The position numbers and the translations under genes are program-made. From Candidatus Bipolaricaulia bacterium (GTDB lineage: Bacteria; Bipolaricaulota; Bipolaricaulia; JBHIAT01), in the NCBI GenBank assembly GCA_046758705.1, contig JBHIAT010000016.1, positions 1 through 34,349 on the forward strand: a stretch of DNA of 34,349 nucleotides. The letters run 5' to 3'. Shown piece after piece: positions 9,452 through 31,043 of this stretch (position 1 is the stretch's first letter; each line of letters begins with the position of its first letter). The notes under the pieces are model-generated. The model had not been told where the DNA came from, did not search any database, and was given only the letters and a program-made list of their open reading frames with translations.

Positions 9452-11415
<1,964 letters not shown>

Positions 11416-11419
<4 letters not shown>

Positions 11420-11892
11420 ACCTAAGCCTAAGCTCAAGCTCAGGCAAAGCGCTCCCGGTGACGTTGATCTTGCTGATCTTTCTGGCCTCGACCCCCGTCT
11501 CCGATATCGAGGACCAGCTGATCTGCCAATGCGGCTGCACCATGGTCGTCTCCTCCTGCCAGTGTAGCGTGGCCGATGAGATGCGCGCTGAGATCGCCGC
11601 CAAGTTGGAGATGGGAATCACATCTGGACAGATCATCCAGGGGTTTGTCGATCGCTACGGCGAGGCGGTCCTCTCCGCCCCCACCAAACGCGGGTTCAAT
11701 CTGACCGCCTGGGTGACCCCGTTCGTCGCCGTCGTCGCTGGCTTGGTCCTGCTTTATTTCATTGTGCGGGGACTTGTCTCGCGAGGAGGACAGTTGGTCG
11801 AGAACCGCCCTCCGGCCTCGGCAAATCTGGACGAGGAGACGCGAGCGCGGATCCGGGAGGAAATCGACGAGGAGCTCAAGGGCTACATGTGA
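11416..11892 (+). CDS. ccmH: CcmH-like cytochrome c biogenesis protein (CxCGC...CxC variant)
   Basis: LICQCGCTMVVSSCQCSVADEMRAEI, FVDRYGEAVLSAP...GFN..AW..P. ATGA overlap with ccmF. Confidence 0.8.
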
Positions 11893-11902
11893 GGTGTTCC
11901 CC

Positions 11903-12166
11903 ATGTTCGCAACCACCGTGGGTCTGCTGATCGCGGCGGCCGTCGGCCTTTATATCTTCCTCCCTTATTTCATCGGAGAGGAGAAACAGCGAGAGGAAGA
12001 CCCGATGGACCGGGAAATCAGACGGGAGGAGCTGATGAGAGAGCTCGCCGATCTGGAGTACGACCTCCAGACCGGAAAACTGAGGCAGGCGGACTACGAA
12101 GCGCTCCGGGCCGATCTGGAGAACCAGCTGGTACAACTCAAGGGGGAACCATCAGATGATCGGTGA
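11903..12166 (+). CDS. Small membrane protein resembling the CcmI N-terminal region
   Basis: TM followed by ELADLEYDLQTGKL..ADYEAL. RBS GAGGTG before ATG 11903. Confidence 0.65.
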   Translation: MFATTVGLLIAAAVGLYIFLPYFIGEEKQREEDPMDREIRREELMRELADLEYDLQTGKLRQADYEALRADLENQLVQLKGEPSDDR

Positions 12167-12893
12167 GGGCAACCACCCTGACCTGCTGGAGCTGGTCGAC
12201 GTCTCCAAGGTAATTGGAGACCGTAAGATTCTCAACCGAATCTCCTTCCGATTCAGACGGGGAAAGCGCTACTACCTGGCGGGCGCGAACGGCTCCGGCA
12301 AGACGACCCTGTTCAAGGTGATCGCCTCCCGCATGAGGGCAACCCGCGGACAGGTCCGATACGAAGGCCGCAACATCGCAGATCTCGATGGGCAGTATTT
12401 GAGAAAGGTCGCGTTTCTGTCGCACGAGCTGAACATGTACGAAGAGTTGAGCGGCCTGGACAACCTCGAATTCTTCGGCCAGGTGTACCGGGTTCCAAGA
12501 CCCTGGGAACGGGCCATGGAGTTGATCGAGCGGGTCGGCCTGAGACTGTTCGCAAACGAGCGGGTGAAATACTACTCGCGCGGGATGCGCCAGCGACTGG
12601 CGGTCGCCAAAGCCCTGCTCCACGATCCGACTGTGCTCCTGTTCGATGAGCCGTTCGCCGGGTTGGATCTGCGGGGTGTGGCCATGCTGGAGGAGATCAT
12701 CGACGAGATGCTGCCCAAAGGTCAAGGGCTGTTCATCCTGGCGACACACGATCCAGGGATCGCCTGGAGGTTAACAGATCACTATCTCTATTTGGAACGG
12801 GGCACGCTCCAATCCTATGGGGGCCAGGAACGGTACGTTCACCAGGATATCGAGCGCAAACTGAGGGAAGCGCGGGATGTGGGGGTGTACTGA
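12156..12893 (+). CDS. ccmA: Heme ABC exporter ATPase CcmA
   Basis: GANGSGKTT, YSRGMRQRL, LLFDEPFAGLD; ccm context. Confidence 0.9.
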   Translation: MIGEGNHPDLLELVDVSKVIGDRKILNRISFRFRRGKRYYLAGANGSGKTTLFKVIASRMRATRGQVRYEGRNIADLDGQYLRKVAFLSHELNMYEELSGLDNLEFFGQVYRVPRPWERAMELIERVGLRLFANERVKYYSRGMRQRLAVAKALLHDPTVLLFDEPFAGLDLRGVAMLEEIIDEMLPKGQGLFILATHDPGIAWRLTDHYLYLERGTLQSYGGQERYVHQDIERKLREARDVGVY

Positions 12894-13570
12894 TGGAGCT
12901 CATCACCGGAGCATGGCTGGTCTTCAAAAAGGACATCCGCTATGAGCTTGAGAACAAGGAGACGCTGATTATCCTGTTCGTCTTCTCGCTGACTGTCGCG
13001 CTCACCTTCAACTTCGCCTTCGACCTGTCCCGTACGGAAGCCCGCCGGTTCCTGCCGGGGTTGATCTGGATCACGGCGTTGTTTGCGAGCGTTTTGGGCT
13101 TCAACAAGAGTATGGCGTTTGAAAAACGGGGCGATGCCTACGGCGGACTGCTGATCGCCCCTATCCCGAAGACATCGATATTCTTGGGAAAAGTCTCGAG
13201 CTCGTTGGTCTTCCTGTGGGCCGTGGAGATGGTGGTGATCCCGCTGTTCTTCCTGTTTTTCAACGTCGAGCTGTCGGCCAAGATCTTCGGCTTCCTGGTC
13301 ATCGTATTCCTGTTGGGGAGCGTGGGGCTTTCGGTCATCGGCTCGTTTCTGACGAACCTGTGTCAGGGATCCAAAAACAGCGAGATCCTGTTCTCCTTGG
13401 GCTACTTTCCCCTGGTCGTTCCGATCTTGATATCGGGCACGAAGCTCTCTGCGGGCATACTAGACGGGAAGTCGATCGTCGCAGGTCCGTGGGTGAAGCT
13501 GTTGATCATCTTCGGTCTGGTCTACACGGTCATCTGTCTTCTGTTGTTTGAGTATCTGGTGGAGGAATGA
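12893..13570 (+). CDS. ccmB: Heme exporter protein B
   Basis: KKDIRYE, PGLIW, FE..G...GLLIAP, IFLGK, FPLVVPILI; multi-TM. Confidence 0.9.
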   Translation: MELITGAWLVFKKDIRYELENKETLIILFVFSLTVALTFNFAFDLSRTEARRFLPGLIWITALFASVLGFNKSMAFEKRGDAYGGLLIAPIPKTSIFLGKVSSSLVFLWAVEMVVIPLFFLFFNVELSAKIFGFLVIVFLLGSVGLSVIGSFLTNLCQGSKNSEILFSLGYFPLVVPILISGTKLSAGILDGKSIVAGPWVKLLIIFGLVYTVICLLLFEYLVEE

Positions 13571-14268
13571 AGGAGATGAACGGCATCATGAACCGAAGAA
13601 GGATCGCCTTGTTGCTGCTCACCGCCGTGTTGATGGGGGTGAACCTGTATCTGATCTTCATCTACGCACCGAAAGAGCAGATCATGGGGGATGTCCAGAG
13701 GATATTCTACTTCCACATGCCGTTGGCCATCATCAGTTTCTTGGCGTTCCTGCTGACCTTTGTGAGCGGGATCCTTTACCTGAGGAGCCGGGATGTGAGG
13801 CATGACCTTCGAGCTCGGGCCTCTGCCGAAGTCGGATTGGTCTTCCTCAGCTTAGCGCTCATCACCGGCTCCCTGTGGGCCAAGGCGACCTGGGGGGTCT
13901 ACTGGACCTGGGAGCCGCGGCTGACCACGACGTTTATCCTGTGGCTCATGTACGTCTTCTATCTGACCCTGAGGGGGTATATCGAAGATCGGGAGAAGAT
14001 GCGGACGATCACGGCCGCCTACGGCGTGATCAGCTTTATCAACGTCCCGATCGTCTTCATGTCGATCCGTTGGTGGAGGACACTCCATCCGGTGTTGATC
14101 GATACCAATGAGATCGCGATGGAGCCGCCCATGGTCGTTGCCCTGATCTTCTCGATCTTCACGTTCGTGGGTCTGTTCGCCCTGCTGTTGAGTGAACGGA
14201 CCCGACTGGCCAAACTGGAACATGAGCTCCAACGCGCCAAAGAGCGGATAAAGGAGGCATGGCGATGA
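13567..14268 (+). CDS. ccmC: Heme exporter protein C
   Basis: QRIFYFHMP, WAKATWGVYWTWEPRLTT, SIRWWRTLHP. Confidence 0.95.
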   Translation: MKEMNGIMNRRRIALLLLTAVLMGVNLYLIFIYAPKEQIMGDVQRIFYFHMPLAIISFLAFLLTFVSGILYLRSRDVRHDLRARASAEVGLVFLSLALITGSLWAKATWGVYWTWEPRLTTTFILWLMYVFYLTLRGYIEDREKMRTITAAYGVISFINVPIVFMSIRWWRTLHPVLIDTNEIAMEPPMVVALIFSIFTFVGLFALLLSERTRLAKLEHELQRAKERIKEAWR

Positions 14269-14411
14269 CTTCCTTGTATGCAGCGTTCTCGATCGTGTGG
14301 GCAGTGTTCTTCGCCTACAACGCTTATCTGATGCGGAGAACGAATGACCTCGAGAACGAGGTCCGATCTCTGAAGGATTTTCTCGCGAGCCCGGGGAATA
14401 GAGATGGCTGA
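14265..14411 (+). CDS. ccmD: CcmD-like small membrane protein (48 aa, not in ORF track)
   Basis: Manual translation MTSLYAAFSIVWAVFFAYNAYLMRRTNDLENEVRSL...; RBS AAGGAGG; ATGA overlap with the ccmC stop. Confidence 0.8.
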   Translation: MTSLYAAFSIVWAVFFAYNAYLMRRTNDLENEVRSLKDFLASPGNRDG

Positions 14412-14976
14412 ACAAAAGGGACAGCGGTTCGTTCTGCTGCTGCTCATCAGCTTCGCTGCGGTCGCGGTCGCCGCCACGGTGATCACCCCGGGGCTGGTCG
14501 ACGAACCTTCGCCCCAACCCCGACCTGCCGCCGAGCGTTCCGGGACGGAACAGGAGGGGCTAATCGAGATGCTCGAGATCTATGAGCATCTCGCCGAACA
14601 GAACCCTGAAAACCCGGATTACCGGGTCATCCTGGGGAACCTCTACTCCCAGCTCGGGGATTGGAGCAGAGCCGCGGAGAACCTGGTGCAGGCCGCGGAA
14701 CTGGAACCCGAGAACGCACATCTGCAGATTGACCTGGGGATCACCCTGTGGCACGCCGGACGTGAGGAGGAGGGTCTGGTCCATTTCGATGAGGCGCTGC
14801 GTCTGGATCCGTCCCTGATCTTCGCCCGCTATTACAAGGGGATGCTTCTCGGCGGGATGGCCGGACGAGAGGAAGAGGCAATCGCCGAGTTGGAACAGGT
14901 GCTCGCCGACGCTGAGGATCCGGAACTCATCGGTCAAGCCGGAGCGGTGTTGCGAACGTTGCTCGGTCGCCGGTAA
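14404..14976 (+). CDS. Membrane-anchored TPR protein (CcmI/NrfG-like)
   Basis: N-terminal hydrophobic anchor, TPR motifs (LGNLYSQLG, LGITLWHAG, ALRLDP); last gene of the ccm cluster. Confidence 0.75.
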   Translation: MAEQKGQRFVLLLLISFAAVAVAATVITPGLVDEPSPQPRPAAERSGTEQEGLIEMLEIYEHLAEQNPENPDYRVILGNLYSQLGDWSRAAENLVQAAELEPENAHLQIDLGITLWHAGREEEGLVHFDEALRLDPSLIFARYYKGMLLGGMAGREEEAIAELEQVLADAEDPELIGQAGAVLRTLLGRR

Positions 14977-18057: not shown

Positions 18058-20379
18058 CTAGTGGACTTCCGACCGACGATCGCTCTCCTCCAGCTCTAAC
18101 GGATGCTCCTCCTCCATCCGTTCCAACGAGACCGTCCCGCTGATCCAAACCATGTCCATCGGGTAGACGTCGGGGTTGAAGATGACCCAGTAGAAGTGCC
18201 AGATCAGGATGGCCAACACGGCGAGGATCGCCTCGTAGAAGTGAGTGAGGATGAACAGGTCGATCCACCACTCGGGAAGGAACCTGAGCGTGATGTTCTC
18301 CAGCCAAAGGCTGAACCCGGTCAGTCCCATGACCATCGTTCCCCAGATCAGCGCCCAGTACTCGATCTTCTCGATGTAGCTGAACCGGTGGAATCTCGGG
18401 CGTTCGCTCAGCAGCCCCAGGTTGTAGCCGACGAGTTGGACGGCATCTCGAAGGTCTTGCATGCGGGGAAGCAGCGCCCTGAGCTGCTCCCTGCCTCGTT
18501 GGGTGAAGATGATGAGCAGGAGTTGGACGACGATGCTCGCCAGCAAGATCACAGCGGCGACCCTATGGATGAACCCCCTGACGGGATCCCCCCCCAGGCT
18601 CATCACCGGCGCGACCCACAGAGAGTCGGGATAGCGCCGGGCAAAGCCCGTATAGGCGAGGACGATAAACGAGACCAACATCGCCACGTGGAGAAACCGC
18701 TCCAGCCGGTTGAATCTGAGATAGAAAGCCTCAGACTCAGAGGGAGGGGACGCATGGGCGTGGGGGTGGGGGTGGGGATGGGGATGTACGTGTAGGGTTC
18801 CGCCCCGCTCCCCCATCTTCCTGAAGAAATCCACGACATTGTGGAGGAACATCCCCCCGACGGTGAAGCCGATCAACCCGATGTAGATGCGCCGGACCAG
18901 CCCGATGATCTGTCCCCCGGTTCCCGGTTCGTCTGTGTGGATCTTACCGACCAAAACGGTCTGCTCCCCAACACCGGGATGACACTGGCCACAGGTCTGC
19001 GGAAGGTTGTTGGGGTTCACCCAGGAAGCGGAGTCCGAAGACGGAAGGATCTTGTGTGCGCCGTGGCAGCTGGAGCAGTTGGCAACGGTCAGGTTACCAC
19101 CCCTCAGCGCGAGGCCGTGGTAGCTGGAGAGATAGGTCTCAAGCCGCATCGCCGGGATGCCATATCTTTCAGTAATTCTCACATTCCTGTGGCAGTCGGC
19201 ACAGGTGATAGGAATGTTGCGCGGGTAAACCGGGGAACCTGGGTCTTCAGGGGACAATATCGCATGCTCCAGATGGCAGTCGTTGCAGACCGGAGCCTCT
19301 CGGACCCCTGTTACATAACCCTTCCAGTGGATACTCTGGACGTAGTTCTCATAAACGGGCTCATGGCACTGGGAGCAGGTCTTCGGTATGTTTCCCTTGT
19401 GGATCGAGGACTTGAGCTCGGTCAGCGGTCTGATCTCGTGGCTTCCATGGCAATTGGTACAGGTGGCCACGTCGATGTTCCCCTGAGCGAGCGCTTGAGC
19501 ATGGACGCTTTTTTCATACAGTTCGTAGGGGTTTTCGATAGGGATCCCGTACTTCTGAGCCAGTTCAGGATCCGAATGGCACCTGCCACAGGTCGAGGGA
19601 AGGTTCTGGGGATAGATGAGAGAGCCCATCTCCCGCCCCGGAAGGATATTGTGCGTTCCATGACAATCCCAGCAGTGGGCGGCCTCCTCGATCCCTTCCC
19701 CGATGGCCTCCGCGTGGATACTTTCTTGGTAAAGTGCCTCAGCGCTCCGATGGCACAGGCCGCATCGGACCGATTCGAGTGTTGTGGCGTGGGGCAACCT
19801 GCCGATGCCTCGGTGACAATCGATACACTCCAGGTCTTTGTGGATGGATGCTTGATACATCTCGACGTCCACAAACGGAAACGGCCCACCCTGGATCCCG
19901 TGACATCTCTGACAGGTGTTGCGGTCGAACTGGGTCTCTACGTGATAGGTCTCCGAAGCGGCCACGTCCATATGGCAGGTGGAACAGAACCTCTCTATGT
20001 TCTGGGGATGGAGGGGGGACTCCGGGCTCGATCGGGGGTAGATCTCGTGCTCCCCATGACAGAGTGTACAGTCTGGAGCCTGCGTGTTTCCCCGCTCCCG
20101 CGCTCGGGCGTGAACGTCCAATTCGAAGCGCTGGGTCATATCCTGGTGACACAGCCCACAATCGATGCGCTTGGCGGGTACAGGATGGGGAAGCGCTTTG
20201 ATATCCTGGTGACAGTCGGTGCATCGGGTGCCCTCGTGAACGGTCGCGTTGAGATCCACATTCTGGTGGCAGATCATGCATGGCTCGTTGGGAAGCCCCT
20301 CGGGAATGCCCGGAACCTTCCAGACGAGCAGCAACCCGAGGAAAACTCTCAAGAAGATTCTTGTCTGCGAATCGCTCAT
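18058..20379 (-). CDS. CbcL-like fusion: 16-heme cytochrome c plus FdnI/HyaC-type cytochrome b membrane domain
   Basis: 16 CxxCH, then TM helices with ERFLH, FIHRVAA, RFSYIEKIEYWALIWG, THFYEAILA..AILIWHFY. Confidence 0.9.
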   Translation of the reverse strand: MSDSQTRIFLRVFLGLLLVWKVPGIPEGLPNEPCMICHQNVDLNATVHEGTRCTDCHQDIKALPHPVPAKRIDCGLCHQDMTQRFELDVHARARERGNTQAPDCTLCHGEHEIYPRSSPESPLHPQNIERFCSTCHMDVAASETYHVETQFDRNTCQRCHGIQGGPFPFVDVEMYQASIHKDLECIDCHRGIGRLPHATTLESVRCGLCHRSAEALYQESIHAEAIGEGIEEAAHCWDCHGTHNILPGREMGSLIYPQNLPSTCGRCHSDPELAQKYGIPIENPYELYEKSVHAQALAQGNIDVATCTNCHGSHEIRPLTELKSSIHKGNIPKTCSQCHEPVYENYVQSIHWKGYVTGVREAPVCNDCHLEHAILSPEDPGSPVYPRNIPITCADCHRNVRITERYGIPAMRLETYLSSYHGLALRGGNLTVANCSSCHGAHKILPSSDSASWVNPNNLPQTCGQCHPGVGEQTVLVGKIHTDEPGTGGQIIGLVRRIYIGLIGFTVGGMFLHNVVDFFRKMGERGGTLHVHPHPHPHPHAHASPPSESEAFYLRFNRLERFLHVAMLVSFIVLAYTGFARRYPDSLWVAPVMSLGGDPVRGFIHRVAAVILLASIVVQLLLIIFTQRGREQLRALLPRMQDLRDAVQLVGYNLGLLSERPRFHRFSYIEKIEYWALIWGTMVMGLTGFSLWLENITLRFLPEWWIDLFILTHFYEAILAVLAILIWHFYWVIFNPDVYPMDMVWISGTVSLERMEEEHPLELEESDRRSEVH

Positions 20380-20394
20380 CTTTCGCCTGGCTTC

Positions 20395-20456
20395 AGTGTA
20401 AATGATCCCGGATCAATTGCTATGATCCGGGTCACCGACCGGTATGATCCTCGATG
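20395..20456 (-). promoter_or_regulatory. Crp/Fnr-type internal promoter
   Basis: TGATccggGTCA 20423-20434; half site at 20445; TACACT on the minus strand (20400-20395), 22 nt from the box. Confidence 0.6.
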
Positions 20457-20468
20457 AGAAGCGATGGA

Positions 20469-22268
20469 CTAGAAGCGCGTGTGGCACTTCATACAGTTGG
20501 TCCCCTGGGGGGGCAGGTCGTTGGCGTGACAGGTGCTGCAGACTTCATGGCCAAGCTCCGGGACGGCCGTCTCCGATCGGGCGAACTCGAGGTGATCGAG
20601 GGTGTTCACATTCTGATGACACAGCTGGCACGGCAGACCGAACCCGATATGTCTCTCATGGGGGAAGGTGACGATCTCCGACACCGTTCCGATATCGGCC
20701 TCATGGCATGACAGGCAATCGGTCGGTGAGGCGGCACGCATCGCCTGCGCCCCGGGGTGACAGCGCTCACAGCTCTCCAGCGTCAGAGTCCCATGCTGAT
20801 CCAAATCCCCATGACAGATGGTGCATCGGATCCCGGCTTCCACAGCGTGGGGGCGGTGTTCAAACGTTCTTCCGAACGTCTCAGCCGCGATGTACTCGAT
20901 GCCATAGTGGCATTGGTTGCAGCTGATCTCGTAAGGGACCTGGAGCCAGGATTCCTCCAGGGTTTCCTCCACGCTGGCCTGCGTTAACGCGGCGTTCAGA
21001 GCCTCATGAGCCCTCTCCAACAGTGCCAGCGCGTAATCTGGGTTGTGGATGCCCCGTCCACGTTCCACCAGGTCGATATTCTTCCACGCCTCCTGCAAAA
21101 GCCCCTCGACCTCCCCCCCGATCCCGTCCAGTTTGCCCTTGACATGTACAAACTCCTCCTCTACGCCCCTCAGCCGGTTGTCCACCGATGCCTTCCAGCT
21201 CTTATAGATGGCGAAGTACCCGGTGTCGTGACAGTTCATACAGCTTACCTCATTGGCGACTCGGTGGGCCGCTTCGGGGAGGATATGACAACCCTCACAG
21301 CTGACACCGGCCAGATACATGGGACTGGGCTGGGGATTCACCCCCTTGCCTCCGATCCCGAGGTAAAGATCGCGGGTGGGGGAATGACCCAGCGAATGGC
21401 AGGTTTCACAGCTGGTTGCGATAATCTCCAGTTTCTCCGGGACCTGATGAGATATCTCCTGATGACAGTTCAGACACTCCACCTTATGCTCGGTGACATG
21501 GGTTGTATGCAGAAACTCGGTCTCGCCGTATCTCCGCAGTCTGGCCGGTTCGTTATGACAGGTATAACACCGATCGGTGGGGACGTCCCCCTCCCCTGTG
21601 ACCACCCCTTTATGGCAGAAGGTGCAGTCCATTCCGAACTGTCTCACGTCGTCATGGTCGAAGGCCAAGCCAGCGGTGGTGATGATCTGGCTGGGAACCT
21701 CATGGCACAGGGTGCAGCGGGCCGTCCCCTGGTTCAACGCCACCCCCTTGAAGTGGCACAGGGAACAGGTGCTGGTAGTGACGGTAATGTGCTGCCCCTG
21801 GACGATCTGCGAGTGGCAGCTGGTGCACCGGAGTTGCTTGCCCCGCCGGAGTTCGGTCAAGTGGGGACGGTGATCGAACAGGATCCCCTCAAAGACCTCC
21901 TTCCCCACGAGCAGGCGTTTTTCATGGCAACCAGCCCTGAGGCAGCTTTCATCAGATACCTCCGCCCAGGGGTTGGTGCCATAGGTCCCGGTCAGGTAGC
22001 TGACGACCATGGCGGAGGCCTCATACTTCTTTCTGAACGTGGAGACGATGCCCGGCGGGATATGGCACTCGACGCAGGCGACCTCGTTATGGCTGGAGGT
22101 TTTCCAGGACCGATAGTAGGGCTTCATAAAGTGACAGGTGTTGCAGAAGCCGGGGAGAGATGAGATCTCCATGCCGACGAACGCAAACGCAATCCCCAAC
22201 GGCACCAAGATGATGAGCACCATCCCGATCCGCTTCCCCCGCCGTCCCCTGATCCTGATCCGCCTCAT
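20469..22268 (-). CDS. Membrane-anchored multiheme cytochrome c with NapC/NrfH-like N-terminus (18 CxxCH + 1 Cx4CH)
   Basis: Basic N-terminus and TM, FCNTCHFM...SW..SSH..V.CVECH, CLRAGCH, further CxxCH motifs up to CMKCH. Confidence 0.9.
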   Translation of the reverse strand: MRRIRIRGRRGKRIGMVLIILVPLGIAFAFVGMEISSLPGFCNTCHFMKPYYRSWKTSSHNEVACVECHIPPGIVSTFRKKYEASAMVVSYLTGTYGTNPWAEVSDESCLRAGCHEKRLLVGKEVFEGILFDHRPHLTELRRGKQLRCTSCHSQIVQGQHITVTTSTCSLCHFKGVALNQGTARCTLCHEVPSQIITTAGLAFDHDDVRQFGMDCTFCHKGVVTGEGDVPTDRCYTCHNEPARLRRYGETEFLHTTHVTEHKVECLNCHQEISHQVPEKLEIIATSCETCHSLGHSPTRDLYLGIGGKGVNPQPSPMYLAGVSCEGCHILPEAAHRVANEVSCMNCHDTGYFAIYKSWKASVDNRLRGVEEEFVHVKGKLDGIGGEVEGLLQEAWKNIDLVERGRGIHNPDYALALLERAHEALNAALTQASVEETLEESWLQVPYEISCNQCHYGIEYIAAETFGRTFEHRPHAVEAGIRCTICHGDLDQHGTLTLESCERCHPGAQAMRAASPTDCLSCHEADIGTVSEIVTFPHERHIGFGLPCQLCHQNVNTLDHLEFARSETAVPELGHEVCSTCHANDLPPQGTNCMKCHTRF

Positions 22269-22278
22269 CGGCTCAGCT

Positions 22279-23478
22279 TCACCTCCGCCGCGGACCCCTT
22301 CGGTAGAGATAGATCACCAGGACGATGGACAGGACATAGACCCAGAAGATGGACAGTCCCACCAACCGGAACCGGGTGGCACCCTGCAGGCCGTGAATCT
22401 CCCCCCAAACCTGCTCGCCGATCGACCTCGCCTGCCGGGTCAGCTCTTCCACCCGGGCTTCATCCAGAGAATGCTGCATCGGGAGGGCCTGGGTGAGGGC
22501 CGTGTTCGCCTGGTAGAGTCTCGACCGGTAGGTGGAGGTGTCAAAGCCGAGCCGCTCCACCTCGGCGCGCTCCGCCTCCGCCCGATCCACCGCCGCCTCG
22601 GCCTCGACGAGCAGGGTCTTCAATCGCTGCCCCGCCGCGAACGCATCAGAGCCTCTGGCATGGCACCCGATGCACGCCGTTTCGAACAGCTCGTGGTTGA
22701 CCTCCCTTATTGCATGGTCGCCGTGGCAGCTGACACATTCGGGGATCGTCTCCTGATCCATTGCCTGCTTGTGGGGACCTTCACGAAGCTGCTGTCGTGT
22801 CCGCAGATGGCATTGATCGCACACCTCTGAGATCCCCTTGACATCCGGGAGGCCCGTCCCGTGGACACCATGACAGGTCGCACAGTTGGGCGCTTTGCGA
22901 TTCTCCTCCTTCAGGAGGGCGACCCCGTGGACGCTCTCCGTAAACTGCTCGAATGGGTCGCTGGAGATCCCGTGATACGCCATGAGGGTGGTATCCGCGT
23001 GGCACCGGGCACAGGTCTCGGGCACGTTCTCCGGATAGACACTGCTCCTCGGCTCCTCGGGGGACAAGATACGATGCGCCGTATGGCAATCTGTACAGAC
23101 CGCTACGTCGGTATCCCCGGCTGCAAGGCGAATCCCATGCTGAGAGGTTCGGTACTGTGCATATTGATCGGTGGGGATGTCATAGGATCTCATCGCCACC
23201 GGATCGGCGTGGCACGAGGCACACAGCTCAGGGATCCCCGATCGCTTCGGTCTTCCCTTGAATCCGGTCTCTGGGGCCATCGCCTCCATGCCTGTCACCG
23301 TCCCATCTCCCCCGTGACAGTCGACACAGGTGATGGCGAGGTTGGTGTGCACGCTCTCGCGGTACTCCACCCGGATCCGGCTGTGGCAGACACTGCAGGA
23401 GGTCCCTTCCTCGCCAACCGCCCCGAATGCTGATCCGATCACGATGGCGATCGCGATCCACAACACGGCTTTGATCAA
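22279..23478 (-). CDS. 9-heme cytochrome c with signal peptide and C-terminal membrane anchor
   Basis: 9 CxxCH, C-terminal TM followed by RRGPRRR. TTG start with GGAGGAGG RBS, coupled to the upstream gene. Confidence 0.9.
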   Translation of the reverse strand: MIKAVLWIAIAIVIGSAFGAVGEEGTSCSVCHSRIRVEYRESVHTNLAITCVDCHGGDGTVTGMEAMAPETGFKGRPKRSGIPELCASCHADPVAMRSYDIPTDQYAQYRTSQHGIRLAAGDTDVAVCTDCHTAHRILSPEEPRSSVYPENVPETCARCHADTTLMAYHGISSDPFEQFTESVHGVALLKEENRKAPNCATCHGVHGTGLPDVKGISEVCDQCHLRTRQQLREGPHKQAMDQETIPECVSCHGDHAIREVNHELFETACIGCHARGSDAFAAGQRLKTLLVEAEAAVDRAEAERAEVERLGFDTSTYRSRLYQANTALTQALPMQHSLDEARVEELTRQARSIGEQVWGEIHGLQGATRFRLVGLSIFWVYVLSIVLVIYLYRRGPRRR

Positions 23479-23888
23479 CGGCCTCCTCCTTCAAAGTAGC
23501 CCAGGATGGAGAAGAGCACCATCAAACTCACCGCCACCAACCCCAAAGTGATCGCTACGGGTCTCTTCTTAGGATGCCTCTCTGGATTTCGATCCAAGAA
23601 AGGCCACAGGAACAACAGCACGATGGCCAATATCCCCACGACAATCCCCAGGCCGTGGGGGAGATACACGAACAGTTGATGGACGGCGAGCAGATACCAC
23701 GGGGGGGTGGCGTCTTCGAAGCGGTGCAGCGGGTCGGCCTGATCCTGGAGGGAAGGAGAGAGGAGCACGGCCAACGAGACCAGGATCCCCAAGGCAAGGA
23801 GCAGGGCGATCGACAGATCGAGAATGAGATCCAGGAACCGTATATGGCCCTCGTTGCGACTCTGACCCTTACCCTTACCCTCGTCCAT
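23475..23888 (-). CDS. Cytochrome b C-terminal part (subunit IV, PetD/QcrC-like)
   Basis: ADP......TPPWYLL (PEWY-equivalent), LWPFLDR.PERHP.KRP. Confidence 0.88.
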   Translation of the reverse strand: MDEGKGKGQSRNEGHIRFLDLILDLSIALLLALGILVSLAVLLSPSLQDQADPLHRFEDATPPWYLLAVHQLFVYLPHGLGIVVGILAIVLLFLWPFLDRNPERHPKKRPVAITLGLVAVSLMVLFSILGYFEGGGR

Positions 23889-23901
23889 CGTCCCTCACAT
23901 C

Positions 23902-24540
23902 CTACTCCAGCGGCTCGCTGATCCCCAGCCGGCGGATCAGCAGCACATGGAGGAACAGGAACAGGATCATGATCCAAGGCAGGATGCCGACATGGAAGAC
24001 GTAGAACCGCAGCAGGGTCGCCTCGGTCACCTCGGTCCCGCCCCACAGGAGACGGAGGAAGAACCCTCCCAGGACCGGCAGATCGCCGATGATCCTCCTG
24101 AACGAGTCGATGACCCAGAACGCCCGTTGATCCCAAACGAGCAGATATCCCGTGAACGCGAAGATCCAAGTCCCCAGCAACAGAAACACTCCGACGACCC
24201 AGTTCAGCTCTCTGGGGGGTTTATAGGACCCGTAGAAGTAGACGCGCAGCAGGTGCAACAGCAGGGTCAGCATCATCAGGTCAGCCCCCCACTTATGAAC
24301 TCCCCGGATCAGCCAGCCCAGTCTGGCATCGGACATGATGAACCGCACGCTCTGATACGCCTCTTCGGTGGACGGGTGGTAATAGATCATCAACAGGACC
24401 CCGGTGACCACCTGGACCAGGAACAGGAGCAGGGTGATGCCACCGAGATAATAAAGGTAGTTGACGTGGGGGGGGATGATCCAGTTGATCTCGTCATCGA
24501 GGATCTCCCTCAGCCTGTCGACGACCCTTCCTTTTATCAT
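23902..24540 (-). CDS. Cytochrome b6-like subunit (PetB/QcrB-like)
   Basis: LGGIT..LF.VQVVTG, GWLIRGVHKWGA..M...LLHLLRVY, KPPRELNW, RFYVFH...LH. Confidence 0.93.
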   Translation of the reverse strand: MIKGRVVDRLREILDDEINWIIPPHVNYLYYLGGITLLLFLVQVVTGVLLMIYYHPSTEEAYQSVRFIMSDARLGWLIRGVHKWGADLMMLTLLLHLLRVYFYGSYKPPRELNWVVGVFLLLGTWIFAFTGYLLVWDQRAFWVIDSFRRIIGDLPVLGGFFLRLLWGGTEVTEATLLRFYVFHVGILPWIMILFLFLHVLLIRRLGISEPLE

Positions 24541-24551
24541 ATCTTAATATC

Positions 24552-25001
24552 TTAGAGCTTAGAGATGTAGAGATCACCGTTGACGATCTCGACCCGGAGA
24601 CGAGACAACGGTCGTGGTGGCGGTCCTGCGAGAACGTTGCCGTTCGTGTCGAAGAGCCCCGCATGACAGGGGCAGGAGAGCACTCCCCGAGTCTTGTCCC
24701 AGTCCACAATGCAACCTCTGTGAGTGCAGATCGCCGAGAGTGCGACAAACCCCCGTTTAAGGTGGAGCACCCAGACCGGCTCCCCGGCGAACAGGATCAG
24801 CTTGCCTCCGCCGATCGGGATCTCCGAACGTCCCCCCAGCTTCAGGGTCTTCTCGGCGATAACCCCCTCCCTCCCCTTCGACGGGAAGATGTAGGCAAAT
24901 ACGGTGCTGAATATCCCCAGGAGCCCGAGCACGACACCACCTCTGAGCAACCCTCTGAGGAACGACCTTCTCTCCGCCCGTCTCTGATCCTTACCCGCCA
25001 T
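24552..25001 (-). CDS. Rieske [2Fe-2S] subunit of a Rieske/cytochrome b complex
   Basis: Tat-like RRSFLRG plus TM; CTHRGC and CPCHAGLF; GPPPRPL. Confidence 0.93.
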   Translation of the reverse strand: MAGKDQRRAERRSFLRGLLRGGVVLGLLGIFSTVFAYIFPSKGREGVIAEKTLKLGGRSEIPIGGGKLILFAGEPVWVLHLKRGFVALSAICTHRGCIVDWDKTRGVLSCPCHAGLFDTNGNVLAGPPPRPLSRLRVEIVNGDLYISKL

Positions 25002-25026
25002 TCTAATCTCCCCTCAGTGCATCATC

Positions 25027-25220
25027 ATTGTAGTTGCCTCAGGGTCGGTAGGCCATGATCTTCATCAGCCGAAGAGACGGCTTTCGTCATTAAAAAGGAG
25101 TTTAACGAATCTATGACAAAGATCAGTCGAGAAATTGGCTATAGATCATTCTATGAGGTGACAATACTCATTGAATTTAACGATTGTGAAATTGACTTCC
25201 ACGAGAGAATCTTGCATGAT
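25027..25220. promoter_or_regulatory. Divergent control region with multiple Crp/Fnr-type boxes
   Basis: TGATcttcATCA 25056-25067 lies 23 nt from minus-strand TACAAT (25032-25027). Further boxes at 25114-25125 and 25159-25170. Plus-strand TTGACT-17-CATGAT at 25192-25220. Confidence 0.68.
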
Positions 25221-25240
25221 GGGACAGGGGTAAAGCATCT

Positions 25241-26605
25241 GTGGATGACCAAACCATGGAGGCGCTCCAGGCCGCCAAAAAAATCTACCAGGATAATAAG
25301 GCGATGACCCTGGTCTCCCGGTCTAACGGCGAGACCTGGGCAGGTAAGGTCTATTTCGCCGAGGACGACGGCTACATCTGGGTCGCTTTGGAACAGAGCC
25401 GGAATTACCGCAATATTGAAGAGAACCCCCGGGTCTTTTTCGTCATCGAACACGGGGTCCCCGACCGATTTATCCAGGGCGAGGGCGTCGCCGAGATGAT
25501 CGGCCCGATCGAGGACCGACCCGAACGGCATATGATCTTCCGCAAGGTCTTCGAACTGGTCCCTTTTGCCAAGGCGTTTCCCGGAGTGACCCTCATCCGG
25601 ATTCGCCCGATCCGGTTGTTTATCTCGGACTTTACGGGTGACTGGAAGCCCCGGGCCGAGGTCGAGGTTACCGACGATGTCCTCCAGGTGTTTCAGACGA
25701 CCCTGAAGACCCAATGGCCGGCGTGGCGGGTCTATCTCCAGGCAACCCGGTACTTTGCGTTTACGGTGACCTTGTTTTCCGTCCTGATAGGGGCTCTTCT
25801 CGCACCGTCACTGGACTGGGGACTCCTGGGGCTGACGCTGCTGGGCGCGTTGTTGTTGCACGCGGGGATCAATATCGTCAGCGATTATTTTGACTACCGA
25901 CGGGGCGCCGACACGTGGCAGGCTCTGGGTTCGAGCCGCGTCCTGGTCGACGGCCTCATGACACCGTCGACCCACATCCGGTTCGGGTTAACCCTCCTGT
26001 GGTTCGGCAGCCTCATCGGACTGACCCTGATCTACCTGCGCGGCCTGCCTGTCCTGTATCTGGGTCTGGCAGGCATATTCATCGGCCTGTTTTATACGGC
26101 CCCGCCCCTGGGATTCAAGTACTTCGCCCTGGGCGATCTGTCGGTATTCCTGGCCTTTGGTCCCCTGCTGCTACTGGGTTCGTACTACGTTCAGGCAGAG
26201 GCGTTCGCGGTCGTCCCGCTGGCCGTTTCGATTCCGCTGGGACTCCTGACGGCCGCCGTGCTGCATGGCAACAACTTCCGGGATATCGCCGAAGACAGCA
26301 AGGCGGGATATCGAACCCTGGCGGCGTTCCTGGGACCTCGAGGGTCAGGTTATTACTATCTGAGCTTGGTGGCGCTGGCCTATGTGCTGGTCCTGGTTTA
26401 TATCGGGCTGGACTGGCTGCCGTGGACCGCCGCCTTGGTCCTGATGACATTGCCTTCGGCCTGGCGGAACGTCCGAGTCGCCTTTCGGCCTGCCCGTGTG
26501 GCGTTCACGTTCCTGGACTTGATGACCGCCCAGCTCCATCTCTACTTCGGCCTGTTTCTCACCCTTGGCTACAGCCTCGACCGCTTTACGGGGTTGTCAC
26601 TGTAG
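25241..26605 (+). CDS. Fusion of a PNPOx-like split-barrel domain with MenA-type DHNA prenyltransferase (UbiA family)
   Basis: N-terminal ~155 aa: MTLVS..NGETWAGKVYFA, RNIEENPRV, IQGEGVAE. C-terminal part: ATR, HAGINIVSDYFDY..G.D, YTAPPLGFKY.ALGD, HGNNFRD..ED.KAG.RTLA. Confidence 0.85.
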   Translation: MDDQTMEALQAAKKIYQDNKAMTLVSRSNGETWAGKVYFAEDDGYIWVALEQSRNYRNIEENPRVFFVIEHGVPDRFIQGEGVAEMIGPIEDRPERHMIFRKVFELVPFAKAFPGVTLIRIRPIRLFISDFTGDWKPRAEVEVTDDVLQVFQTTLKTQWPAWRVYLQATRYFAFTVTLFSVLIGALLAPSLDWGLLGLTLLGALLLHAGINIVSDYFDYRRGADTWQALGSSRVLVDGLMTPSTHIRFGLTLLWFGSLIGLTLIYLRGLPVLYLGLAGIFIGLFYTAPPLGFKYFALGDLSVFLAFGPLLLLGSYYVQAEAFAVVPLAVSIPLGLLTAAVLHGNNFRDIAEDSKAGYRTLAAFLGPRGSGYYYLSLVALAYVLVLVYIGLDWLPWTAALVLMTLPSAWRNVRVAFRPARVAFTFLDLMTAQLHLYFGLFLTLGYSLDRFTGLSL

Positions 26606-26732
26606 GGTTTGGACCGGGTGATCGACTTTGATCTCGGGAGCCTGTTCCGTTGTAAAGACGGGCAAGAGTTTGACCGCGAGTGATGACACTGGCTTTGAGA
26701 AAATCTCTCCGCGTCATCTTGACCTTCATGGC

Positions 26733-27089
26733 TTACCCCTCCCCGACCAGCAAGGGATGAACGGTCAGAGCATAACGCTCTCCGTTGATGAGGATGTCTT
26801 CTTTCCCAATATGGTCGAATGGGAGGACAAATCTAACGGTTCGTGAACTCCCTGGAGGGACCTCCACTTTTTCGCGCCTCAACACCTGGTGTTCCTGTCC
26901 AATCTTCAAACTCAAAACCCTTTTGCAAGGAAGGATCCTGCGGGGGTTTGAGATATTGACTGAGATAGGAACGGCATCACCTCGACAAACTTCATTCGGC
27001 ATATCCACCTTGACCTCCACCTTGCGATAGCAATCCATCAACATGACGGCTATGATCCAAATTCCCAAAGCGACAAACATCAAGGTCAT
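26733..27089 (-). CDS. Hypothetical membrane-anchored protein with an Ig-like (CARDB-like) beta domain
   Basis: RBS GGGAGGG, N-terminal TM, then V..GD.V.ISVNISN and V.VPPGSSRTVRF. Confidence 0.6.
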   Translation of the reverse strand: MTLMFVALGIWIIAVMLMDCYRKVEVKVDMPNEVCRGDAVPISVNISNPRRILPCKRVLSLKIGQEHQVLRREKVEVPPGSSRTVRFVLPFDHIGKEDILINGERYALTVHPLLVGEG

Positions 27090-27395
27090 GATCTATCCCT
27101 CCCTATCACATCCTGTCTGACGGAACTCCATGGCAATGTTATTCATTCTGACATTATTATAGAGTCAATACCGATTAAAAGACCATGATTTACGACCTTT
27201 TCCGATATGAATGTGACTTAAATTTATAATGATTTTAATTAATTGCAAATATATTCATAAATAGTCAATTTTATCTCTCTAGGCATATGACTGTATGATC
27301 ATCCTGCCCCGATTATCAGAGAGAATTCAGCAGATTTTATGATGAAAAAGTGCAAATTTGATAGCAAATACCCAATAATACAAAGGGTCATTCAG

Positions 27396-28160
27396 ATGGT
27401 TGAACAGGTCAAAGATGTGAATTTAACGGATTACTTGTTGTTAAGTTGTACCAAGGAGCATTGCTCCCTGCTCTTCGCCGATCTCAGTGAGGAAGCATTC
27501 ACTGAGTTAATGGAGCTGATGCTGTTCATCGACTACAAAAAGGGCGAGTTGATCTTCCAAGAGGGCTCGCTCGCCTCCGGTATCTATATTATCTGCAGTG
27601 GTCAGATGAAGTATGGCAAGTACTCAGCCAACAAGAGGAAGAAGCGGTTGCTCAAAATCTTTGAACATAAGGAAATACTGGAATTGGAAACCGTTTGCCA
27701 GAAAGGTTCGCCCACTTATATCGGATATGCTAAGGCGTTAACCGACACCCGAGTCGCTTTCATCGAAAGAGAGGCGTTTAACACCTTTCTCAAAGCGCAC
27801 CCTCGCGCGCTCTTTAAGCTATGTGAGGAGGTCACCAGGGAGCTGCGTGTATTCGAATGCCGACTGGTAGAGCATGCCTATGGGACCATCGAAGAGAACA
27901 TGGCCAGGTTGTTCCTAATCTTAGGGGATAGATACGGTGTGGTCGATGAACTCGGATTACGTATCGATATAGAACTGAGTCGCTCCGATCTGGCGAGCTT
28001 GTTAGGCATCTCCATAGAAACTGCAATTCGTTTCTTAAGCCAATTGAAGGACAACGGGTTAATCTCTCTTAGAGATCGAGAGATCATCATCACAGATAGA
28101 CAGGGTCTGGAAAGCTTAGTGAGCCTTCCAACGACCTGTGTTGAAGAGTGCCTTGTATAA
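27396..28160 (+). CDS. Crp/Fnr family transcriptional regulator (paralog 1)
   Basis: YKKGELIFQEG cNMP-type domain; HTH SRSDLASLLGISIETAIRFL. Start 27396 inferred by alignment with paralog 2 (track gives 27339). Confidence 0.92.
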   Translation: MVEQVKDVNLTDYLLLSCTKEHCSLLFADLSEEAFTELMELMLFIDYKKGELIFQEGSLASGIYIICSGQMKYGKYSANKRKKRLLKIFEHKEILELETVCQKGSPTYIGYAKALTDTRVAFIEREAFNTFLKAHPRALFKLCEEVTRELRVFECRLVEHAYGTIEENMARLFLILGDRYGVVDELGLRIDIELSRSDLASLLGISIETAIRFLSQLKDNGLISLRDREIIITDRQGLESLVSLPTTCVEECLV

Positions 28161-28364
28161 CTTATTAAGCTAAACCCCTCCATTTGAACGTTTGTTCACT
28201 GCCTCAGGGCCAATGTGAGAGGCTGAGTCTAGGCTGTTTCTCTCTCACACGATGATGGCCCAGGTCAGGAACAGCAACTGACCTGATAGAGGTCTGTCAA
28301 TGAGATATCCTAAATCATAGCACCTGTTGAAAGTAGCGGTTTAGAATATAGGTGATGTGATATC

Positions 28365-29114
28365 ATGCCTGAGCAAGTTAAAGTAGTAGAGTTTAGAAAG
28401 TCTCCGTTGGCCGATTGTACCAAGGAGGATTGTTCCCCGCTCTTTGCCGGTCTCAGTGAGAAAGCGTTCGCTGAGTTAGCGGAGCTGATGCTGTTCATCG
28501 AGTACAAAAAAGGGGAACTGATCTTCCAAGAGGGCTCGTTCGCCTCCGGTGTCTATATTATCTGCAGCGGCCAGGTAAAATATGGCAAGTACTCAGCCAA
28601 CAGGAAGAAGAATCGCCTCCTTAAGATCATCAACCACGGGGGGATATTGGGGATGGAAGAGCTATTTGAGCCAATCCCTCGTATTGGATACGCTCGAGCA
28701 TTAAAGGACACCCAAGTGGCCTTTATCGAGAGGAGTCACTTCGTTAAGTTCATCGGGAAGCACCCGGCTATGCTTCTCCGTATTTGTAAGGAATTGTCAA
28801 GAGAGTTGATGATCTTCGAGTTTAAACTGGTAGAGGCTTCATATGAAACACTGGAGAAGAACATATCTCGGTTGCTGTTGAGTTTAGCAGCCCGTTACGG
28901 CGTTCAAAAGAAGTCTGGCCTATACATAGAAGCAGAGCTAAGCCGCACCGACTTGGCACAGATGCTTGGAATTAGTCTTGAGACAGCCATACACATGCTT
29001 GCCAGGCTAAAGAACAAAGGATTAATCGCTTCCGATAAACATAGAATCATCATTATCGATAAAGAAGGTTTAGAGAGCTTAGCTGAACCCTTACCCGCTT
29101 GTTACTTCATTTGA
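28365..29114 (+). CDS. Crp/Fnr family transcriptional regulator (paralog 2)
   Basis: Same domain layout; HTH SRTDLAQMLGISLETAIHML. Confidence 0.92.
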   Translation: MPEQVKVVEFRKSPLADCTKEDCSPLFAGLSEKAFAELAELMLFIEYKKGELIFQEGSFASGVYIICSGQVKYGKYSANRKKNRLLKIINHGGILGMEELFEPIPRIGYARALKDTQVAFIERSHFVKFIGKHPAMLLRICKELSRELMIFEFKLVEASYETLEKNISRLLLSLAARYGVQKKSGLYIEAELSRTDLAQMLGISLETAIHMLARLKNKGLIASDKHRIIIIDKEGLESLAEPLPACYFI

Positions 29115-29145: not shown

Positions 29146-30897
29146 CTATTCGTTCCGTAACTCCTCCAGAGTTGTTAAATCGAAAGGATTCCGGCCCATC
29201 TCTAAGCCAGCAATCCATGCCTCTCGTCTGCGACCATACGGCTCGTACAGATTATTCTCCTTTGACCATTCCACATAGCATTGAAAGTCCTCAATGGCAC
29301 CCTCGATATCTCCAGTGAGGGCCCGGGCTAGGCCACGGCTATCGCGAATGGCGCCATTGTCCGGTGCCAACTCAACTGCGTGTTCACAGGCGGGCAAGAC
29401 GATCTCTGCAAACCCGTCAATGCTCCCGAACCAACAAATGAAATCATTGGAGAATGCGTCGTTTGTCTCGTTTGCCGCTTGGGTGGCTTGAGTGACATCG
29501 GTGCTGGCCCGGTCATACTCCCCCTTGTTTTTATAGGCAATCCCCCGAATCAAGTAGACCATTGTATCCTCAGGGATGAGCTCGATCGTCTGGGTGTAAT
29601 CGGCGATCGCCCGGCCGTACTCCCCTTGTTTACTATAGGCAAGTCCTCGACCCAAGTAGGCCTCAGCAGTTCCCGGCTCTAACCCGATCGCCTTGTCAAA
29701 GTCTGAGATGGCCCGATCATATTCCCCTTTGAGCAGATAGGCACTCCCCCGACTGACGTGAGCCTCAGTATACCGGGGGATGAGCTCGATCGCCTGGTTA
29801 AAGCTTGAGATGGCTCGCTCATACTCCCCCTGGTTCAAATAGGTAACCCCCCGATTGTAGAAGGTCTCAGCATCTCGCAGCACTTTGGTCAAGGCGGGAC
29901 CCACGTCAGGGTCGATCTTCTTAAGCGCCTCGGTGGCTGCCCGGCGCACATGCTCATCCGCATCCTGTAGCGCTTGGACCAAGGCAGAGACGGCATCCCG
30001 GGCGGCAAGCCCAATATTCCCAAGCGCCCAGGCGACGTTAGTGCGTACGCGCCAATCCTCATCTTGCAGCGCTTCAATCAAGGCAGGGACAGCGTCCTTG
30101 GCGTCAGGGCCGATCTTCTCAAGCGCCTCGGCGGCTGTCGCACGCACGAGCACGTCCTCATCCTGTAGCGCTTCGACCAAGACAGGGACTGCGGCAGAGC
30201 CGATCTCCCCCAGTACAAAGGCAGCTTCCTCGCGCACACCCGCATCCTCATCCCGTAGTGTTTCGACCAGAGCAGGAACTGCAGCAGGACCGATCTCCAC
30301 CAACGCAAAGGCGGCTCCAAAGCGCACGAACTCGTCCTCATCCCGCAGTGCTTCAGCCAGGACAGGAACTACCTCCTGAGCCTCAGGGCCGATGGCCCCC
30401 AGTGCAAAGGCAGCTTCCGCGCGCACGCCCGCATCCTCATCATCTTGTAACGCCTTGATGAGCTCGTCGATGCCTTGGCCCACCTTCGATGCGCTCAGGC
30501 TCTTGATGTAGGCGATAATCGTGTCGAGATCCTGTTCCAAGAGCTTATTACCGAAGTCAGGCATCAGGTTGGGTATAAAGCCCTGGACGACCTTGGCGGT
30601 TGGGTCCAGGATTGACTCTCTCAGGTAGGCTTCATAGGCGATGATCGTCTTCCCAGTGGTCAGCGTCCGCTTGCTGCCAAACAACCCCGTAAAGGTCGGT
30701 CTGTCAGACACCTCGCCGGTTGTCGCATGGCAGGCGGTACAGCCGAACTGCAGAGTCAGTTGGCGACCGCGCTCGACCACCGCCGAGATCATCTCTTCCT
30801 CTTCCACCTCTACCGCAAATAACAAAGCAGCAACTGCACTTGCTAAAATGGCTAATGCCACCAGTACCCCAGAAAGCGCTATTTTCTTCACCTTCAC
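29146..30897 (-). CDS. Exported monoheme cytochrome c - HEAT repeat - TPR repeat protein
   Basis: Signal/TM; CTACH...PTFTGLFGS...AYLRESILDP.AKVV.GF...MP; 31-aa AVPALxEALxDEDxxVR repeats; TPRs (YNRG..Y...GEY.RAI). GTG 30897 follows a purine-rich RBS. Confidence 0.85.
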   Translation of the reverse strand: MKVKKIALSGVLVALAILASAVAALLFAVEVEEEEMISAVVERGRQLTLQFGCTACHATTGEVSDRPTFTGLFGSKRTLTTGKTIIAYEAYLRESILDPTAKVVQGFIPNLMPDFGNKLLEQDLDTIIAYIKSLSASKVGQGIDELIKALQDDEDAGVRAEAAFALGAIGPEAQEVVPVLAEALRDEDEFVRFGAAFALVEIGPAAVPALVETLRDEDAGVREEAAFVLGEIGSAAVPVLVEALQDEDVLVRATAAEALEKIGPDAKDAVPALIEALQDEDWRVRTNVAWALGNIGLAARDAVSALVQALQDADEHVRRAATEALKKIDPDVGPALTKVLRDAETFYNRGVTYLNQGEYERAISSFNQAIELIPRYTEAHVSRGSAYLLKGEYDRAISDFDKAIGLEPGTAEAYLGRGLAYSKQGEYGRAIADYTQTIELIPEDTMVYLIRGIAYKNKGEYDRASTDVTQATQAANETNDAFSNDFICWFGSIDGFAEIVLPACEHAVELAPDNGAIRDSRGLARALTGDIEGAIEDFQCYVEWSKENNLYEPYGRRREAWIAGLEMGRNPFDLTTLEELRNE

Positions 30898-30934
30898 CAG
30901 CCCCCCTTCCTCCTCTTCAAAACTGGCATAATAA

Positions 30935-31043
30935 AAACTATAACATTTATGAGCAAAATTCAATGATTTTTATCATTCATTGCATATAGGTCATTAATAG
31001 TATAAATCTGAGTCATTACAACATAAATCAGTGATTTAAGTCA
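30935..31043. promoter_or_regulatory. AT-rich control region with Crp/Fnr-type boxes
   Basis: TGATttttATCA 30964-30975 with minus-strand -10 candidates TAGTTT/TATAGT at 30935-30942; TGATttaaGTCA 31032-31043. Confidence 0.6.

Follow-up and report, generated by a model that had tools for sequence, protein, structure and literature searches.

Why would a membrane prenyltransferase of the menaquinone pathway carry a split-barrel domain in the same polypeptide chain, and what might such a protein do for the cell that makes it? The question is raised by a single gene on a stretch of 34,349 nucleotides (the window, meaning here the whole stretch analysed), positions 1 to 34,349 of contig JBHIAT010000016.1 from a Candidatus Bipolaricaulia bacterium (assembly GCA_046758705.1). 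Most anaerobes and many archaea have menaquinone as their main respiratory quinone and, to our knowledge, its head group is made by only two known routes. An earlier note, made from the DNA letters alone, described one continuous open reading frame (ORF) joining a split-barrel domain to a full MenA/UBIAD1-like domain; Pfam, an AlphaFold2 model and Foldseek all agree with that description. The fusion is widely conserved and unstudied, and it combines a member of the MenA/UBIAD1 family with an uncharacterised split-barrel module. A role in reducing and then prenylating salvaged head groups is tentatively proposed for it below.

The fusion is real, and is not an artefact of a lost stop codon or of the assembly. 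Contigs from three sequencing runs, labelled as hydrothermal vent metagenome within a single study and possibly the source of the window DNA, show no differences and no indels across positions 25001–26800. In a fourth run, a contig of a related strain crosses positions 25621–25919 without a gap. The full-length protein is modelled as a confident single chain (predicted local distance difference test, pLDDT, 93.6; predicted template modelling score, pTM, 0.88). Among sequencing runs listed as containing the gene, none is of RNA. The homologue search listed approximately 100 full-length fused proteins of ~440–480 aa from many phyla, at 38–67% identity and 91–100% query cover; these carry automated names such as ‘1,4-dihydroxy-2-naphthoate octaprenyltransferase’ or ‘prenyltransferase’. 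Among 80 loci drawn from species-representative genomes, purpose-built hidden Markov models (HMMs) found both domains in 74, while five were unfused and one was interrupted by a contig end. A lost stop codon, which the earlier note had allowed for, does not fit this spread over many phyla, and an internal stop is present at one locus alone (L029). That two genes had been merged by a lost stop, a frameshift or mis-assembly is therefore of negligible probability; the homologues, the fused loci and the run assemblies refute it, and no point in its favour was found. An alternative in-frame ATG at position 25256 is the start of an identical database protein (P0002, 449 aa), and a GGGG stretch lies 12–16 nt ahead of the GTG start.

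The C-terminal domain is a member of the UbiA prenyltransferase superfamily, as judged from its HMM score and its two Asp-rich motifs. UbiA (PF01040) matches residues 178–413 with 121.1 bits against a cut-off of 34.2. Both motifs (N211/D215/D218/D224 and N344-N345/R347-D348/D352) are intact and invariant in an alignment of 33 sequences (A1), in which the homologues share 38–66% identity; the second motif, H-G-N-N-x-R-D-x-x-x-D, is of the MenA type throughout. In NCBIfam, all of the ten top models belong to the MenA type. The cut-off of TIGR00751 is narrowly passed (107.7 against 102.15), and the PRK06080 sub-models remain below theirs. Scores under the cut-off include 154.9 against 264 for NF004751, 143.1 against 277 for NF004749 and 107.4 against 225 for TIGR02235. 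The best Foldseek match of the domain is human UBIAD1 (8djk_B; 33% identity, TMt 0.81, E 1.2e-10), which supports membership of the MenA/UBIAD1 family rather than of the UBIAD1 subtype, because no bacterial MenA chain was among the matches listed.

The N-terminal domain is indeed a split barrel, as the earlier note had supposed. PNPOx_N (PF01243) matches residues 10–125 above its cut-off, and Foldseek aligns the domain with split-barrel proteins at TMt 0.64–0.83 (2i02, 0.78; 6vna, 0.74–0.83; 3ec6, 0.77; also 1rfe) and with the heme-binding members 5bnc, 6m09 and 3tgv at 0.46–0.69. A profile built from 41 N-terminal domains matched Rv2991 (1rfe; E 5.5e-6), general stress protein 26 (3ec6; E 1.8e-4) and 3f7e (E 9.7e-4) in the PDB, and these are solved split barrels that bind flavin or deazaflavin. 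In the ESM Atlas, fused proteins form two clusters (60 and 263 members), and the structure rows are PNPOx_N. Judged from the alignments, the domain is conserved as strongly as the catalytic domain. In the 33 homologues W33, E51, N58, N62, F67, P74, F77, Q79, G80, G88 and E95 are invariant, as is R170 in the linker. When Thermoplasmatota were added, giving 41 sequences, N58, F67, P74 and G88 were still invariant, and W33, K36, Q79, G80, G82, E95, K111, P123 and D130 were kept in at least 90%. In neither alignment was any His, Cys or Met within residues 1–160 invariant or 90% conserved.

Split-barrel proteins hold their cofactor at the dimer interface. For two copies of the domain together with flavin mononucleotide (FMN), a homodimer was predicted with an ipSAE of 0.92 in three of three runs against 0.13 for the best control, FMN being included and unscored. 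Of the solved pairs 20 of 30 attain that mark, as does 1 of 23 single chains. The contacts agreed and the partner pLDDT was at least 91. Since many split-barrel dimers have already been solved, this result shows likeness rather than proof. The predicted interface comprises residues 21–36, 64–79 and 109, and contains six highly conserved residues (W33, K36, F67, P74, F77 and Q79). The domain is probably flavin-binding, with FMN or flavin adenine dinucleotide (FAD) being most likely. F420 is an unlikely cofactor in the host genome (3.70 Mb in 319 contigs; 93.9% complete, 4.7% contamination), because neither CofD nor any radical SAM protein of the CofG/H or MqnC type was found there.

Stand-alone relatives of the domain are distant. 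A word-based search for short relatives of residues 1–160 gave six matches which appear to be truncated fused genes; four are too short to hold the whole domain and three extend 54–73 residues beyond it. Stand-alone split barrels of 138–160 aa did turn up in an exhaustive profile search, and these are distant. No MenA-like ORF lay near one of them (P0139) in three usable loci, where little flank is present, and no N-domain-like ORF was found within ~5 kb of 12 unfused MenA-like genes in relatives of the same class. The host genome also encodes a stand-alone PNPOx-like protein of 182 aa (PF01243, 40.1 bits), which is distant from the fused domain (11.5 bits against the N-domain HMM) and whose gene lies directly upstream of UbiX on the same strand.

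The fusion has one origin. In a quick IQ-TREE search of 94 C-terminal domains, the 74 fused rows formed one clade (SH-aLRT 97), separate from the 18 unfused MenA-like rows, a small sample of unfused proteins. In this tree the protein from the window falls beside fused forms with the labels Chloroflexota, Tectomicrobia and Acidobacteriota, and the Thermoplasmatota form a long branch within the fused clade, so that carriers include both bacteria and archaea. The fused form was found in none of 30 relatives of the same class as the host (G006–G035), while 14 of these have an unfused MenA-like gene with 32–40% identity to residues 163–449 (loci L100–L111). In a 301-genome sample of the phylum of another carrier (G045), that genome alone has the fusion. 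Such a patchy distribution fits horizontal spread. The one broken copy among the fused loci is in a Kryptonium metagenome-assembled genome (L029:5977-7356), where the internal stop splits the gene into 293 and 166 aa. Full-text literature searches, supplements aside, found no paper on a MenA–split-barrel fusion.

What, then, would supply the head group in the host? Its genome has three clear UbiA-family genes: heme O synthase, an MqnP-like gene and the fusion. Late genes of the futalosine pathway are represented: the MqnP-like gene adjoins MqnL (TIGR03701, 596.9 against 495.9) on contig C21 (L002; L099:7337-9625), and the genome also has UbiX (C117; L120) and MenG/UbiE (C88; L118). HMM searches of the host genome found no MqnA/D and no MqnC- or MqnE-type protein, and tblastn of the genome with the mqn cluster proteins of three relatives returned the MqnP-like gene only. 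In those three relatives, MqnE, MqnC and MqnP are clustered with two PF02621 (MqnA/D) matches. The early mqn genes are likely, though not certainly, absent from the host. No MenB or MenD in the genome exceeded its cut-off, the best scores being 101.8 against 342.7 and 73 against 244.2 bits, respectively. The window itself, as the earlier note had observed, holds no other men gene; neither men nor mqn genes were found among the 31 non-overlapping ORFs of at least 90 aa that were scanned.

A similar pattern is seen across 56 fusion-carrying genomes, made up of the host genome with 5 and 50 others from separate marker searches. Strong MqnA/D (at least 100 bits) was found in 11 of the 56 and MenB over its cut-off in two, leaving 43 with neither strong marker; one of the 43 has a borderline MenB (G057, 255 bits) and 11 have weak PF02621 matches only (30–53 bits). 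MqnL was found in 12 of the 50 carriers searched for it: nine genomes with strong MqnA/D, and three (G058, G081 and G084) which, like the host, have MqnL and no strong MqnA/D. Where a complete route is present it brings its own prenyltransferase, and the fused enzyme is there an extra. In G036, MqnE, MqnC and MqnP form one cluster with two PF02621 (MqnA/D) matches, and in G003 an unfused MenA adjoins MenB. In most other carriers the fusion is the only naphthoquinone-type prenyltransferase found. As for the surroundings of the gene, ORFs from 81 loci were clustered all against all, and Pfam was run on the 19 neighbour clusters of widest occurrence and on 101 neighbours taken from 21 diverse loci. 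These analyses found no operon partner conserved across lineages, and the fused gene therefore appears to be a self-contained unit.

It is tentatively proposed, at somewhat short of an even chance, that the protein is a self-contained enzyme which reduces and then prenylates free naphthoquinone head groups, with salvage as its putative role. The C-terminal domain would attach an isoprenoid tail to a reduced head group of the 1,4-naphthoquinone type. The N-terminal domain would form a homodimer on the cytoplasmic side, with flavin in the groove at the dimer interface, and would pass on the two electrons by which an oxidised head group is reduced to the quinol needed for electrophilic prenylation. 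Candidate head groups, whether scavenged or recycled, would include oxidised 1,4-dihydroxy-2-naphthoate (DHNA), menadione-like compounds and other free naphthoquinones. Alternatively, the N-terminal domain might hold the prenylated product in its reduced form until MenG methylates it; with MenG/UbiE in the host genome, the product of the fused enzyme could be methylated. The enzyme would work independently of the de novo Men and futalosine routes, being, for most carriers, the sole entry to menaquinone and, for the others, an additional salvage route.

Parts of this scheme have precedents. UBIAD1 is described in one paper as inactive without dithiothreitol, and its authors conclude that reduction of menadione must precede prenylation (PMC4398444). 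In phylloquinone synthesis a dedicated ring reductase, NdbB/NDC1, is required between MenA and MenG (PMC5299476). Quinone auxotrophs which keep the prenylation genes alone and use exogenous DHNA are also known (PMC10746273). A salvage role of the reduce-then-prenylate kind, one of two functions suggested in the earlier note, would fit the genomic pattern, because most carriers are without both routes and those in which a route is complete possess MqnP or MenA besides the fusion; gating of the enzyme by heme, the other suggestion, is unsupported.

Several points weigh against the salvage proposal. DHNA, the canonical substrate, is a quinol from the outset, and a canonical MenA therefore needs no reductase. 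The PNPOx_N score is scarcely above its cut-off (30.6 against 28.1), and the family includes heme binders as well as members that bind nothing. There is no evident electron donor, an FMN reductase gene adjoining the fused gene in Thermoplasmata only. Since the early mqn genes form one cluster in the relatives, a single missing contig could hide them in the host, and with an MqnP-like gene, MqnL and UbiX present the host may have an undetected source of head groups. More generally, absence of MqnA/D and MenB is soft evidence, the carriers being metagenome-assembled genomes. Finally, neither MenB (E 1e-70 or better) nor MqnA/D was found in any of 31 genomes searched in the same-class set. Relatives with an unfused MenA-like gene had been expected to carry MenB, and with none in 31 this expectation failed as a control; a MenA without a known head-group route is thus not specific to the fusion.

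Other functions have been considered for the N-terminal domain. It is rather unlikely, though a serious possibility, that the domain has no redox role and is instead a cofactor-less or ligand-binding barrel which dimerises the enzyme, binds and hands over an aromatic substrate such as DHNA, or senses a metabolite and so controls quinone synthesis. The strong predicted homodimer and the marginal Pfam score would suit this, the most conserved polar residues (E51, N58, N62, Q79 and E95) differ from the Arg/Lys-rich set that contacts flavin phosphate, and the structural neighbours include proteins that do not bind flavin, namely heme-binding 5bnc, 6m09/6m0a and 3tgv and the CREG protein 1xhn. However, the best profile matches are binders of flavin or deazaflavin, nearly all sequences retain K36 as well as a basic residue at position 54 or 57, and an interface groove conserved this strongly is more usual for a site of catalysis or cofactor binding than for a surface that only dimerises. 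Much less probable is a heme-binding domain like that of HugZ/HutZ, by which heme or redox state would gate quinone synthesis. The Foldseek neighbours do include heme-binding split barrels (5bnc, 6m0a, 3tgv and 9bl1) and cytochrome and Ccm genes abound in the window, but the cytochrome neighbourhood is not conserved at other loci. No His, Cys or Met is invariant or nearly so in the 33 or the 41 sequences, and it is because no His or Cys is invariant that heme gating is unsupported.

The pathway and the substrate might also differ from those proposed. The fusion could mark an undescribed third route to the head group, in which the N-terminal domain performs the last flavin-dependent oxidation or aromatisation and channels the product to the prenyltransferase. 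The 43 of 56 carriers lacking both strong MqnA/D and MenB would be explained in this way, and four genomes (the host, G058, G081 and G084) have MqnL without strong MqnA/D. The fusion is also present in Thermoplasmatota, and PMC4122944 cites the use of menaquinone and thermoplasmaquinone in Thermoplasma. Such a route is nevertheless judged unlikely: no conserved neighbour could supply the earlier steps, 13 of the carriers have a complete Mqn or Men pathway as well as the fusion, and making a naphthalene ring would be beyond one small domain. It is less probable again that the C-terminal domain prenylates a different aromatic acceptor, bound by the N-terminal domain, to give a second, distinct prenylated cofactor or quinone. 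The protein falls below nine of the ten MenA-type cut-offs listed and is barely over that of TIGR00751, the fused clade is separate from the unfused MenA-like proteins, and the fusion can occur as an additional copy beside MqnP or MenA. Against this stand the MenA-type identity of all ten best models, the invariant MenA-type second motif and a best structural match, at 33% identity, to UBIAD1, which is a naphthoquinol prenyltransferase.

How does the fused protein compare with known systems? Like MenA, it has the UbiA-family fold and both Asp-rich motifs, and it narrowly passes TIGR00751; it scores under the cut-offs of the other MenA models and, unlike canonical MenA, it carries a 160-residue split-barrel domain, forms its own clade, is unlinked to MenB–F and is mostly found in genomes without them. 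UBIAD1, its best structural match, is also the closest functional analogy to the proposed mechanism, with a salvaged head group and prior reduction (PMC4398444); however, it is eukaryotic, has no fused reductase-type domain and depends on other reductants. MqnP is likewise a UbiA-family enzyme and prenylates naphthoate, but the MqnP-like protein of the host is encoded by another gene on C21, and no MqnP model is among the NCBIfam matches of the fusion. A dedicated reductase acting on the naphthoquinone ring next to the MenA step is seen in NdbB/NDC1 (PMC5299476), which offers a precedent for a redox helper of MenA. In contrast to the fused domain, it is a separate type-II NAD(P)H dehydrogenase of unrelated fold and acts after prenylation. 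The N-terminal domain resembles PF01243 proteins such as 3ec6, Rv2991 (1rfe) and NPUN_R6570 (2i02) in fold (TMt 0.64–0.78), in profile and in its predicted homodimer, whereas it is tethered to a membrane enzyme and has only distant stand-alone relatives among those found. From F420-dependent FDOR split barrels it differs in that its host, a 93.9%-complete genome, has no detected CofD or CofH, and from HugZ/HutZ in having no conserved axial-ligand His.

Genes beside the fusion vary with lineage. Those local to the Thermoplasmata are FMN_red, an aldo-keto reductase, DUF6015 and a weak MqnA/D-like gene. In all 12 related Thermoplasmata loci a gene for an NADPH-dependent FMN reductase is convergent with the fused gene and within 25 bp of it, and in 11 of the 12 the weak MqnA/D-like gene lies ~1.5 kb upstream. 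A second, distant UbiA-family gene of ~273 aa directly adjoins the fused gene in some Thermoplasmatota loci. Neighbours local to Kryptonia are an aldo-keto reductase and an MBL-fold gene, and a Rce1-like gene is local to Kapabacteria. An aldo-keto reductase thus accompanies the fused gene in two unrelated lineages, Kryptonia (L024, L026, L029 and L079) and Thermoplasmata (L081–L093). In one of the two it lies upstream and is divergent; in the other it follows the fused gene on the same strand, downstream. Neighbours related to respiration or quinones include chorismate synthase and cytochrome c at L020, CtaG and cupredoxin genes at L039, and polyprenyl synthase with Nqr-type genes at L054.

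In the window, the fused gene is divergent from the Rieske gene, in accordance with the earlier note, and the two share an intergenic region (Table 1). A promoter and terminator scan of positions 24900–27400 gave nothing above chance, with a single weak sigma-70-like match per strand in the intergenic region. The Rieske and cytochrome neighbourhood is local to the window and was not seen at the other loci examined. The subunit-IV-like protein of the Rieske operon has PPWY at the position of the Qo motif, and in a 773-aa protein multiheme c modules are combined with a membrane domain of the cytochrome b561 type. A complete cluster for cytochrome c maturation (Ccm) sits between a molybdoenzyme operon and the multiheme genes, and the window as a whole looks like a gene island for respiration. 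Positions 27000–29114, where the G+C content is 43–46% against ~55–63% elsewhere, contain two paralogous regulators of the Crp/Fnr type a short way downstream of the fused gene.

Table 1. Coordinates of the fused gene, its parts and other features. Positions are those of the window unless a locus (L) or host contig (C) is given.
Feature	Coordinates	Strand	Description or basis
Whole fused gene	25241..26605	+	454 aa; GTG start at 25241; stop codon within coordinates
N-terminal PNPOx-like split-barrel domain	25241..25660	+	~residues 1–140; Pfam, structure model, Foldseek, alignments
Linker	25661..25750	+	~residues 141–170; short helices 145–152 and 161–168; alignment and model
MenA/UBIAD1-type UbiA-family membrane prenyltransferase domain	25751..26602	+	~residues 171–454; HMMs, motifs, Foldseek
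Divergent intergenic region	25002..25240	.	239 bp; common to the fused gene and the Rieske/cytochrome b operon
Rieske gene	24552-25001	-	239 bp from the fused gene
Rieske/cytochrome b operon	18058-25001	-	Rieske, cytochrome b6-like, subunit-IV-like, three multiheme cytochromes c
773-aa multiheme c/cytochrome b561-type protein	18058-20379		
Ccm (system I) cluster	9026-14976		Complete; CcmE, F, H, A, B, C and a TPR protein
Crp/Fnr-type regulator	27339-28160		
Crp/Fnr-type regulator	28365-29114		
605-aa protein	29146-30963	-	Cytochrome c domain with HEAT and TPR repeats
Second UbiA-family gene	L080:2086-2904, L087:341-1159, L089:586-1404, L077, L094		Beside the fused gene
Stand-alone 182-aa PNPOx-like gene	L120:938-1483 (C117:4587-5132)		
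UbiX	C117:5150-5695		

It is possible, although on the doubtful side, that this ‘reductive prenyltransferase’ represents a widespread and undescribed route of menaquinone salvage in head-group-auxotrophic thermophilic bacteria and in Thermoplasmatota. If so, many uncultured carriers would draw free naphthoquinones from the surrounding community, with reduction on the flavin domain and prenylation both performed by one protein, and the single clade that spans phyla and both domains of life would record the horizontal transfer of a one-gene solution. Since one conserved gene is the only recognisable naphthoquinone prenyltransferase in most carriers, and these show neither route, how such organisms, Thermoplasmatota included, obtain their quinones becomes a testable question, as does whether quinone cross-feeding is common in hot-spring and vent communities. 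For the UbiA family, a reductase built into the enzyme would be a new solution to the requirement for a reduced substrate that is typified by UBIAD1.

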